32,000 nt of DNA from an uncultured archaeon (GTDB taxonomy: Archaea; Asgardarchaeota; Thorarchaeia; Thorarchaeales; CAZPUN01): NCBI GenBank assembly GCA_964589775.1, contig CAZPUN010000017.1:69266-101265 (forward strand), given 5' to 3'. The position numbers and the translations under genes were made by a program. The notes under the pieces are model-generated. The model made no database searches. It was not told the origin of the DNA and was given only the letters and a program-made list of their open reading frames with translations. Of the stretch, positions 5,515-28,291 are shown piece after piece (positions within the stretch are counted from its first letter, which is position 1; every line of letters begins with the position of its first letter).

Positions 5515-6063
5515 AATTACCAAATCTGCGATACCATTCTTTATTAGTATTTTTGCATTTAATGAGGGAAGAATGACAATATCACCCTTTGAAAAAGGAC
5601 CATATGAAATCATATCTGCACCCATTATAGCAGGATAATCCTTGTGAAATAAAACAAGCATTTTTTCAGGTTCAGCCACAGTTTCTTTCTCAACAGAAGG
5701 TTCAAGTGTAGTTCCAGAAGAAATATTATTAACAAAGTCAAAATAGTCAGAATATGCACGCTTCATTCGTTCAAAATATTGAGATTCATCAAGTGTAATA
5801 AGAGATAAATCAATATCAGTATTTGAGAAAACATAATTCATAATTTTTGATAAACGAACATCTAACAAATCTTGTAACATATATTCCATATTTTTCAATT
5901 TTTGTTCAATTAGTCGTTCAGTAATTCTATCTGTAGATTTGGCTAAAACAACTCTTGTCTCACTGATTTCACGTGCAATATCGTTTAGAAATGCATCTGA
6001 TAACGAAGATAAAGACGAATCGGATATTTCTTGTAGCCATTTTTCATATAATTTTTTATACAT
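5506..6063 (-). CDS. GINS subunit, Gins15/Gins51 type (A domain followed by B domain)
   Basis: MYKKLYEKW start, helical A domain with R..KI, C-terminal PAIMGADM.SYGPF.KGDIV.LP..NA.IL...G. The ATG at 6061-6063 overlaps the priS stop and is preferred over the track start at 6081. Confidence 0.88.
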   Translation of the reverse strand: MYKKLYEKWLQEISDSSLSSLSDAFLNDIAREISETRVVLAKSTDRITERLIEQKLKNMEYMLQDLLDVRLSKIMNYVFSNTDIDLSLITLDESQYFERMKRAYSDYFDFVNNISSGTTLEPSVEKETVAEPEKMLVLFHKDYPAIMGADMISYGPFSKGDIVILPSLNAKILIKNGIADLVILD

Positions 6064-7264
6064 CGAGTTCAAGAGTTGCAACCCCTTTGCAAAGCATGAA
6101 TACTGCTACCGACATAGGAACTTCAACAGTTACATTGTTATATGGTCCATAATACTCATTACCAATTCTAATCTTGGGCGATTCTTTAATATGAATTGTT
6201 AATTCACCTCTAAAGAAAATTGCGTCACTAAATGGATCATATGATTCTAAATCATTAAATGAAATATTCATCACTTTAAATCCAGTTCCACCATGTAATG
6301 AACCAGGCAAGCGTATTAATCTTTTTGTATCATATGCAACAGGTTCGTCAATTTTAGCGCTATAATGATGTGCTACAAATTTTCCAATTTCTTGCCATGT
6401 AGATTCACTAATTCGAGGTATTACACCAAGATTTGGATTTGGCGATTGTAGTGCTTTGATAAACACCTCTTTGTTTTTATTCAATATATTTGCCCAACGA
6501 AAATTCAGTGAATCAAGATCATTTGAAAGAGATACTAAATACCTAATAAGACGCCCCTTCCATCCGGGAGATTTTAAAGATGGCGCAGGATTTCCCATAA
6601 GCCTACCAAACCCGAAATATTTAGGAACAATACCCACTCCAGTCAAATAATCAACGATCTCTCGACGTGCGCGTTGGTTTAATTCTTTTACAAAATCTGA
6701 TAGGACATGTACATGATAACCTCTATGTCCGGAAAAGACTATGCTTAATTCATGCTTACTAATGCCAAAGTCAGGTATTAAAAAATCTTCTATTATTTTA
6801 TAAACCTCATTTTTTGCAGTGTCTAAACATTGTTCACATAGCCATTTCTTCACTTTTAATTTATCAGAACCACATTTAGGACATTTCTCGGGAGGAACAC
6901 CTTTTCCTTTCATTCCACATTTTAGACATGTCCAAGTATCATGTTCTTTCTTACATGGTGTATTAAGGTGGTCCGCATCAATATCAAAAACCAATTCGGC
7001 ACCCAACCAACCTTTTTCAGCCATAATTGATGCGCCAGGATTGTCATAATATGCTGTCGAATAAAAAGCATGTTTGGGGGCATATGTTGTGAGATATTTA
7101 ATTAAAGCATCAGGACTTTGAAAACTTAAATGCCTACGCATAGAAGGAATATCAAAATGAAAGAATCCAAATTCGCGTTGTGAAATTTTTTCGGGAATCG
7201 AAATAATTGACTTTGATTCATTATAATATTGGCGGAATTTATTTCTTAGAAACGTTTGACTTAT
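6056..7264 (-). CDS. priS: DNA primase catalytic subunit PriS; start uncertain, extended to a putative ATA
   Basis: ELVFDIDAD, FSGHRGYH, IDEPV..D..RLIRLPGSLH motifs. The frame stays open upstream of the track ATG (7141) and encodes the conserved F.QYY...P..I..REFGF segment, with no ATG/GTG/TTG before the in-frame TGA at 7280-7282. Confidence 0.93.
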   Translation of the reverse strand: MSQTFLRNKFRQYYNESKSIISIPEKISQREFGFFHFDIPSMRRHLSFQSPDALIKYLTTYAPKHAFYSTAYYDNPGASIMAEKGWLGAELVFDIDADHLNTPCKKEHDTWTCLKCGMKGKGVPPEKCPKCGSDKLKVKKWLCEQCLDTAKNEVYKIIEDFLIPDFGISKHELSIVFSGHRGYHVHVLSDFVKELNQRARREIVDYLTGVGIVPKYFGFGRLMGNPAPSLKSPGWKGRLIRYLVSLSNDLDSLNFRWANILNKNKEVFIKALQSPNPNLGVIPRISESTWQEIGKFVAHHYSAKIDEPVAYDTKRLIRLPGSLHGGTGFKVMNISFNDLESYDPFSDAIFFRGELTIHIKESPKIRIGNEYYGPYNNVTVEVPMSVAVFMLCKGVATLELDV

Positions 7265-8297
7265 CTTTTTTGCCCCCTTTCAGAATTCTTAATTTTCTCT
7301 TGTAATAATTAAGAGGATGTGATACACGCTCACATAATTTTTCTTCAGGAAAACATAAACCTATTGTGCGTAAATAAGAACACGATGGAGGAGTATAAGG
7401 AGTCCTCGACCCGCGAAGGCCCGCAATATGTTCTATTTGATACCTTGCAATTTCTGGATCAAAATCAGGCGATGCAGAAAATAAGTTTAGTATATCATCG
7501 ATTTGCATTCCAATTTTTAGTAGAAATGCAGTCATTGCAAACCTTGCTTGATGCGGAAGACCATGTCCACTTTTAGTTTCAGAGATCATATATTTTATGC
7601 ATGGGGGAAATGCTTCCTCATTAATCTGCGACAGATCAACATCAGAATATTTCGCAATCTGACGATTCAGAACAATTTTTACGCGCGAAACAACTTGCTC
7701 TAATGCCTCTGGAATTTTTCGGGGAAGTACATGATGTGATGTGATAATTCGAAACTTTACTTTTTCAGAGATAAGTCGGACAAGTTCATCTTTATTTAAA
7801 TATACATAACCTTTGATTAAAAAACGATTTACTAGTTTCCACGTATCAGAAAAGTAAACTGATGCATCTAGAAATGATGAGAAATGCATTTTAAATTCAA
7901 TTATTCTAGAACCAAACAGTGGCTCTGTTTCATCAAAAGAAGTTAATAATACATCCCAGTTTAAAGTTGTTTTAGCAATATGAACTATTTTTTTAAGAGG
8001 CTCATCCTTTAACAATACTTCGATACGTTTTGATTCTGCAGTCGCAAAACGATGCAATAAATATTCATTTCGAATGTAGGCAATGATAAATCTGATTAAT
8101 GGATAAATAAATATATTTGAATATTGATTTATTCTTCCGGTCAGTATAACTTCTTTTAAAATAAGCTCGGATTCGCTAAGAACTTTTGAATATTCCGAGC
8201 TAGCAAGGTCTGAAAGTGAGATAGGATGACTTTTCATATATTCTTCAAATTCTATTGTAAATGGATATTTTAGTAGATCGAGCTTAGATAATTGCAT
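7239..8297 (-). CDS. priL: DNA primase large subunit PriL (with FeS domain)
   Basis: KYPF, WKLVNR.L.KGYV, FPPCI, LPHQARF, SPDFD..IARYQIEHIAG, Y.PPSC..L...GLC motifs; ATG at 8295-8297 has a GGAGT SD. Confidence 0.95.
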   Translation of the reverse strand: MQLSKLDLLKYPFTIEFEEYMKSHPISLSDLASSEYSKVLSESELILKEVILTGRINQYSNIFIYPLIRFIIAYIRNEYLLHRFATAESKRIEVLLKDEPLKKIVHIAKTTLNWDVLLTSFDETEPLFGSRIIEFKMHFSSFLDASVYFSDTWKLVNRFLIKGYVYLNKDELVRLISEKVKFRIITSHHVLPRKIPEALEQVVSRVKIVLNRQIAKYSDVDLSQINEEAFPPCIKYMISETKSGHGLPHQARFAMTAFLLKIGMQIDDILNLFSASPDFDPEIARYQIEHIAGLRGSRTPYTPPSCSYLRTIGLCFPEEKLCERVSHPLNYYKRKLRILKGGKKDKSNVSKK

Positions 8298-8321
8298 TTC
8301 AGATACTCCAAATTTAAGCAC

Positions 8322-28027: not shown

Positions 28028-28291
28028 TTGGAGCATCTGAAAAGAATAGGAATTGTCATCCAAACAACAAAAAGCGGAACAATACTTGTAAAATCAAAAT
28101 TTACACCAAAGGAAGGGGCATGGGCTGTTGATCCATCTCTAAGAAAAGTCGGAAAAATCATAGACATTTTCGGACCTGTTAAGGCACCATATGTTGCAAT
28201 AAAGCCATTAGATACAAAAGACCTCAAAAATCTGATAGGAAAACCACTATATCTGCTCGAGAAAAAGAAAAGGGGGCGTATTAAGAGATGA
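28028..28291 (+). CDS. gar1: H/ACA RNP component Gar1
   Basis: [21 protein letters not shown]; overlaps tfb by ATGA. Start is TTG 28028 or possibly CTG 28037. Confidence 0.9.

Follow-up and report, generated by a model that had tools for sequence, protein, structure and literature searches.

In a 32,000-nucleotide stretch from a Thorarchaeales genome (contig CAZPUN010000017.1 of assembly GCA_964589775.1, positions 69,266 to 101,265; hereafter the window), priS, the gene for the catalytic subunit of the replicative primase, is most likely a separate gene that initiates at an ATA codon (7264-7262, minus strand) behind a GGGGG Shine-Dalgarno (SD) element (7277-7273) located inside the tail of priL, the upstream gene for the primase large subunit. 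As proposed here from sequence comparison, priS would span 6056-7264 on the minus strand (402 codons plus stop) and overlap priL by 26 nt (7264-7239). The SD element in the priL tail would position the 30S subunit at the ATA, and the initiator tRNA would pair with the near-cognate AUA and insert Met, giving a 402-residue PriS that begins M-S-Q-T-F-L-R-N-K-F. The public 361-residue product (P0003) begins instead at the ATG at 7141-7139, which is the internal Met-42 of the proposed protein, and is most likely 41 residues short. If AUA is the codon actually used and is read as Met, such a weak codon may also lower PriS output relative to PriL.

Any start of priS has to lie downstream of a TGA at 7282-7280 (minus strand), which closes the frame upstream and is matched at the same column in a relative whose PriS is 80% identical. 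From there the frame reads TGA, AAG GGG GCA AAA AAG ATA AGT CAA ACG TTT CTA AGA AAT AAA TTC and onwards to the ATG at 7141, that is, 46 sense codons (7279-7142) with not a single ATG, GTG or TTG among them. priL is read one base back from the priS frame, and its TAA stop (7241-7239) is reached 23 nt beyond the ATA, the two genes thus overlapping. This open stretch and its overlap with the 3' end of priL were correctly placed and described in the initial annotation, and its claim that the motif F..YY...P...REFGF is a conserved structural part of PriS is borne out by the alignments, the substitution rates and the structural model that follow.

The identity of both proteins is clear. PriS scores 192.5 bits against TIGR00335 (cut-off 143.5) and 66.8 against PF01896 (cut-off 26.8), and carries the DIDADH catalytic motif, aligned to chain A of the S. 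solfataricus primase structure (1zt2_A); in a 37-sequence alignment, its catalytic and zinc-binding residues D94, D96, D98, H99, C113, C116, C128 and C131 are invariant. PriL matches PF04104 (2.4e-36, residues 142-323) as well as the NCBIfam PriL models, and its tail after HPLNYY comprises 17 residues, likewise in relatives. The 46-codon segment aligns with residues 13-50 of S. solfataricus PriS, and the NCBIfam PriS model NF001641 aligns with it from model position 12. A corresponding FLxLxFQxYY...P...REFG segment occurs in 29/29 same-order relatives whose loci were read and again in some 20 metagenomic ones; in nearly all of them it is preceded, at a distance of 4-15 codons, by an ATG, GTG or TTG of the gene itself. 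Within the segment, Y14, R30, E31 and F34 are invariant in the 37-sequence alignment. Between the window and the 80% relative, the ratio of nonsynonymous to synonymous substitution rates (dN/dS) is 0.15 for codons 10-41, chosen as lying outside the priL overlap, and 0.17 for the next 100 codons, with neither a stop nor an indel in the segment. The AlphaFold2 model of PriS read from the ATA reaches a predicted local distance difference test score (pLDDT) of 94 and a predicted template modelling score of 0.90, and places residues 1-41 at pLDDT 92-96, forming a helix (residues 2-16) and a strand (residues 32-35). The 46-codon stretch is therefore genuine coding sequence rather than a chance open frame, and the segment is needed and under selection. 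The 40 codons between the ATA and the annotated ATG (7142-7261, minus strand) encode the N-terminal helix alpha-1 and the REF(G/A)F strand, both missed by the public product, and can be translated only via a non-canonical start.

Among the codons available for such a start, the ATA is singled out by its distance from the SD element. The 3' end of the genome's 16S rRNA, GGATCACCTCCT, ends in CCTCCT, and GGGGG pairs with its CCUCC, one of the pairs being G-U. In a crude set of 1814 open reading frames (ORFs), in which GGAGG and GGGGG were tabulated within 25 nt upstream of starts, GGAGG stood 7, 8, 9 and 10 nt before the start in 59, 50, 34 and 23 cases, and GGGGG at the same distances in 11, 4, 7 and 3 cases, the latter accounting for 25/27 of its occurrences; within genes, both motifs together occur at only 0.47 per kb. 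At priS, exactly 8 nt separate the GGGGG from the ATA, which is the genome's own SD spacing. The ATA is the sole near-cognate of ATG at this spacing in the stretch: of the others within the nine available codons, the first AAG overlaps the SD, the second AAG lies at 5 nt, and an ACG lies at 17 nt. The initial annotation had favoured this same start, 8 nt after GGGGG, and had pointed to an identical AGGGGGC ahead of the tfb ATG; that element is indeed present (28271-28277, with the ATG at 28288, plus strand), but at a spacing of 11 nt and not 8. At 11 nt, the element stands at the far limit of the SD window in this genome.

The second line of evidence comes from two close relatives, in both of which priL is directly upstream and overlaps priS in the same manner. 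One PriS (P0004), 80% identical to that of the window, is shared by four assemblies (L031-L034, GCA_053940065.1 and GCA_053994715.1 among them), while the other (P0005, on L035) is 76% identical. Read from the proposed start codon, the junction is ATA AGT CAA ACG TTT CTA in the window, ATA ACA CAA GTG TTT CTT in L032, and ATG AGT CAA GTA TTT CTA in L035. Hence, the 76% relative has an ATG at exactly the codon that is ATA in the window, which is the outcome the initial annotation had named for an ATA start, while the 80% relatives, being of a different species, have ATA at the same codon with GGAGG 8 nt upstream. In L032 this 8-nt spacing is the same as that of its PCNA ATG and its POR-B TTG, and the priS start called there, a GTG, lies at 17 nt. 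Conservation in the priS frame also starts at this codon, as (I/M)(S/T)Q(T/V)FL(R/Q)NKF, and the residues before it are unrelated (KGAKK, KEVNL and LYQK). The 76% relative probably retains the ancestral ATG at the start, and the change from ATG to ATA would predate the split of the window's lineage from the 80% relative.

Several observations weigh against initiation at the ATA. The 76% relative, which has the ATG, lacks a well-placed SD, its GGGG being 12 nt upstream. The sister lineage (the 80% relative) retains a nearby canonical codon at both loci checked, a GTG at priS and an ATG at rad50, so its own use of near-cognates is not certain. The SD element also encodes Lys-Gly-Gly of PriL, so that its conservation could partly stem from the PriL frame. 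Furthermore, AUG, GUG and UUG are the only start codons listed in a review on archaeal initiation (PMC7531240), and AUA is a poor initiator where measured, as initiation at AUA, AUU, AUC and CUG in E. coli amounts to about 0.02-3% of that at AUG (bioRxiv 10.1101/063800).

The open frame upstream of the annotated ATG could also be explained by a programmed +1 frameshift or transcriptional slippage on AAA-AAA-G, which would yield a single-chain PriL-PriS primase with the junction peptide ...LKGGKKISQTFLR. The priS frame does lie +1 relative to priL, both slipped codons would still read as Lys, and the GGGGG shortly before the slip site resembles the SD-like element that stimulates the +1 programmed frameshift of prfB. 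Unlike in prfB, however, there is neither a stop nor a rare codon in the A site: GAT is used 41 times per 1000 codons (rank 4 of 61) and, being common, leaves nothing to stall the ribosome at the slip site. The spacing of the G-rich element differs as well, the site is not conserved, and a run of six A is short for transcriptional slippage. The slippery A6 is replaced in the nearest relative by AAA TCT AAT (L031-L034), so the conserved A6G that the initial annotation had predicted for such a slip fails to appear, and the 76% relative simply has an ATG at the site. In all relatives, priL and priS are two genes with the priS frame closed by an upstream stop; similarly, 11 more distant loci with priL directly upstream have separate genes, a canonical priS start and an in-frame stop just upstream. 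No continuous ORF covers both domains in the window, as TGA 7282-7280 and TAA 7241-7239 separate the frames, and among proteins of 714-2035 residues in a set of 5.8 billion no PriS match was found at E <= 1e-10, a weak negative given that long proteins crowd the candidate list. Finally, eight other genes of this genome have the same start problem and no upstream frame to which they could be fused, for example rad50, whose ATA follows 1 nt after the mre11 stop. Taken together, we consider a frameshifted or slipped fusion very unlikely. A one-base homopolymer error hiding a genomic fusion, also raised in the initial annotation, or an ATA that is in fact a miscalled ATG, appears extremely unlikely. 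The genome is a 64-contig metagenome-assembled genome and the site holds runs of five G and six A, both of which would invite such errors; yet three assemblies carry the same 171 nt across the junction without a difference, namely the window contig, ENA k141_83529 (101,133 bp) and JGI Ga0256914_1019167 (3,760 bp). The JGI contig differs from the window by three single-nucleotide differences elsewhere, without any indel, and is therefore not the same consensus, and the name of the ENA contig is of the k141 style typical of short-read assemblers. In relatives, priL and priS are distinct genes whose frames are separated by a stop, and four assemblies from another species carry the ATA at the corresponding codon. 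In addition, the other near-cognate starts of the genome would require changes of several kinds (G>A, A>C, T>C, G>T), each hitting a start codon precisely, a pattern that random error would not yield. Neither the fusion models nor the indel model are supported.

A start elsewhere in the priS frame is unlikely too. It could be the ACG at 7255-7253, since ACG serves as the apparent start of other genes in this genome, or only the ATG at 7141, the sole canonical codon and the one chosen by gene callers, in which case the start would have been lost recently and PriS would be truncated and probably inactive. The ACG, which corresponds to GTG (the called start) in the 80% relative and to GTA in the 76% relative, is 17 nt from the SD, and the table of 1814 ORFs holds no start with GGAGG or GGGGG 17 nt upstream. 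For the ATG at 7141, no SD is found in the 25 nt before it, and a start there would remove the helix and core strand modelled at pLDDT 92-96, from a segment with a dN/dS of 0.15 and neither stops nor indels. Moreover, the genome contains only one PriS match, so loss of a functional priS would deprive the cell of the catalytic subunit of its replicative primase.

With initiation at the ATA, the primase itself is an ordinary one. Compared with the PriSL heterodimer of S. solfataricus (PDB 1zt2), where the PriS alignment from residue 13 spans the N-terminal helix, the REF strand and DIDADH, and with PF04104 present in PriL, the window PriS is unusual only in its start codon. Single-chain primases that combine PriS-like and PriL-like domains, as the fusion models proposed, are represented by the Nanoarchaeum equitans primase (PMC10250227) and by PolpTN2 of pTN2 (PMC3973330). 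In those, however, PriS precedes PriL in one continuous ORF, whereas here priL precedes priS in two frames with stops. The priL-priS locus is thus not a member of this group, and a primase of reversed single-chain order is not supported.

The ATA of priS is not an isolated case in this genome. We scanned the in-frame codons that follow the upstream stop, up to a point six codons short of the first canonical start, for a strong SD at proper spacing. Of 60 codons that qualify, 28 are near-cognates of ATG compared to 10.1 expected (binomial p = 7e-8), with the excess carried by CTG (8 observed, 0.34 expected), ATA (8 against 2.9), ACG (4 against 0.35) and ATT (6 against 3.6). In controls with the SD spacing shifted by -4 to +12 nt, or in the other two frames, 6-14 were observed and 7-10 expected. 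When triplets after all genomic GG[AG]GG motifs were counted without such restriction, a peak was visible for ATG but not for ATA or CTG, since a few dozen sites are lost in the background; the near-cognate signal emerges only once the count is confined to in-frame codons that precede the first canonical start. Judged from these counts, CTG, ATA, ACG and ATT behind a strong SD would start roughly 1% of genes (about 18-28).

In eight genes (loci L058-L066), the Pfam domain begins 2-25 residues past a near-cognate codon that is located 7-9 nt after GGAGG or GGGGG, and is cut by the first canonical start. These are rad50 (ATA; C23:136104-138194, minus strand), where the canonical start would drop the Walker A motif; aIF2-gamma (CTG; C35:32-1297, plus), where it would drop the G1 motif; a ParA/MinD ATPase (ACG; C20:16548-17456, plus), where it would drop the P-loop; and the genes for a glycogen debranching enzyme (CTG; C39:54820-56832, plus), RNase Z (ATA; C35:11098-12021, minus), an HTH_11 protein (CTG; C30:3811-5217, minus), TrmB (ATT; C21:108085-110295, plus) and ScpB (scpB, ATT; C57:47154-47720, plus). 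At rad50, the window genome reads GGGGG, 8 nt, ATA, and the sister species reads GGGGG, 8 nt, ATT (GCA_053994715.1, L097:1200-1220), where ATT and the mre11 stop share bases (ATTAA); the gene caller took an ATG five codons upstream there, which overlaps the SD. Near-cognate starts may be a trait of the whole family. At aIF2-gamma, the start is GTG in at least 8 of 11 same-order relatives, typically behind GGAAGTGA (L069-L080), and CTG behind GGAGG in the window's genome.

Termination-reinitiation as a general requirement for these starts was rejected, as 5/25 near-cognate starts lie near the end of an upstream gene compared to 122/388 canonical SD-led starts; given this lack of enrichment near gene ends, SD-led de novo initiation explains the starts better. 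Whether the lineage formed by the window species and its 80% sister has heritably relaxed its start-codon requirement for SD-led mRNAs, such that CUG, AUA, ACG and AUU are the sole starts of about 1% of its genes, including priS, rad50, scpB, RNase Z and aIF2-gamma, we regard as evenly balanced. By sequence matches, this lineage is placed as probably Asgard: the next-best matches of Rad50 come from Thorarchaeota (35%) and Heimdallarchaeota (30%), while aIF2-gamma gave only a vague indication of Nitrososphaerota, and a scan of genome contigs yielded just two relatives, both distant, a Thermoprotei and a Bathyarchaeia metagenome-assembled genome. The aIF1 (SUI1) gene is present (C23:32460-32675, L068), its own start being apparently GTG. 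Compared by eye with 10 same-order relatives, its RKWGR and ACGG..K.GHIELQGDHR motifs are intact, with no obvious change that would lower stringency. The aIF1 of this genome also lacks the C-terminal ...GRR tail present in those 10 relatives. Aragorn, with and without intron mode, found 20-25 tRNAs including one CAU tRNA, an incomplete tRNA set.

Within the window, priS belongs to a replication operon on the minus strand that comprises, in order, an RPA3-like gene, PCNA (9074-8322), priL (8321 or 8297 to 7239), priS and gins51 (6063-5506). The latter overlaps the end of priS, and Gins51_C matches the orthologous gene in relatives. In the overlap of priL and priS, the A6 run (7271-7266) serves both as the SD-to-start spacer and as two PriL lysine codons. 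The start of priL is itself ambiguous: its frame is open from a GTG at 8321 that abuts the PCNA stop, and an ATG at 8297, which we consider the likely start, has GGAG 8 nt upstream. Gene callers differ on the priL start in the sister species too (378 versus 353 residues). In most same-order relatives (L003-L030), REFG and W.RH.GF of PriS are separated by some 45-60 additional residues bearing a CPxCG zinc-ribbon motif, an insertion that the window PriS, its two close relatives and G001 lack. These relatives also show no priL in the 1.5 kb around priS, in contrast to the family of the window and to numerous other archaea.

An ATA start is of a known kind; what is unusual here is that an archaeal primase gene has no other start, and that a single genome holds so many genes of this type. 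The closest parallel is infC, likewise an essential gene without AUG, GUG or UUG, which starts at a one-base variant of AUG at normal SD spacing where relatives are canonical. In contrast to infC, whose known autoregulation finds no evidence here, priS resides in an archaeon, where start selection is carried out by aIF1, aIF1A and aIF2, and its codon is AUA; furthermore, the window genome does so at about 18-28 genes, and also with ACG, which is not listed in table 11. That archaeal ribosomes are able to initiate at near-cognates of AUG is indicated by ribosome profiling in Haloferax volcanii, where near-cognates made up about 30% of the putative alternative sites and were set aside to limit false positives (PMC7261190). 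Those sites are alternative ones, whereas in this genome the main frame of core genes has no start available other than the near-cognate.

The consequences for annotation are direct. The public PriS lacks one helix and one strand that belong to the catalytic domain, and the same kind of truncation costs Rad50 its Walker A motif, aIF2-gamma its G1 motif and the ParA/MinD ATPase its P-loop, so that truncated models would mislead phylogeny, structure prediction and the inference of gene content. If the genome-wide pattern is true, it would make a case for including SD-anchored near-cognate starts in annotation pipelines for uncultured archaea, and this lineage would offer a natural system in which to study start-codon stringency in an archaeal initiation machinery that resembles that of eukaryotes. 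Should the start-codon requirement indeed be relaxed, this would represent an archaeal counterpart of eukaryotic near-cognate initiation, which is systematically missed by current gene callers.

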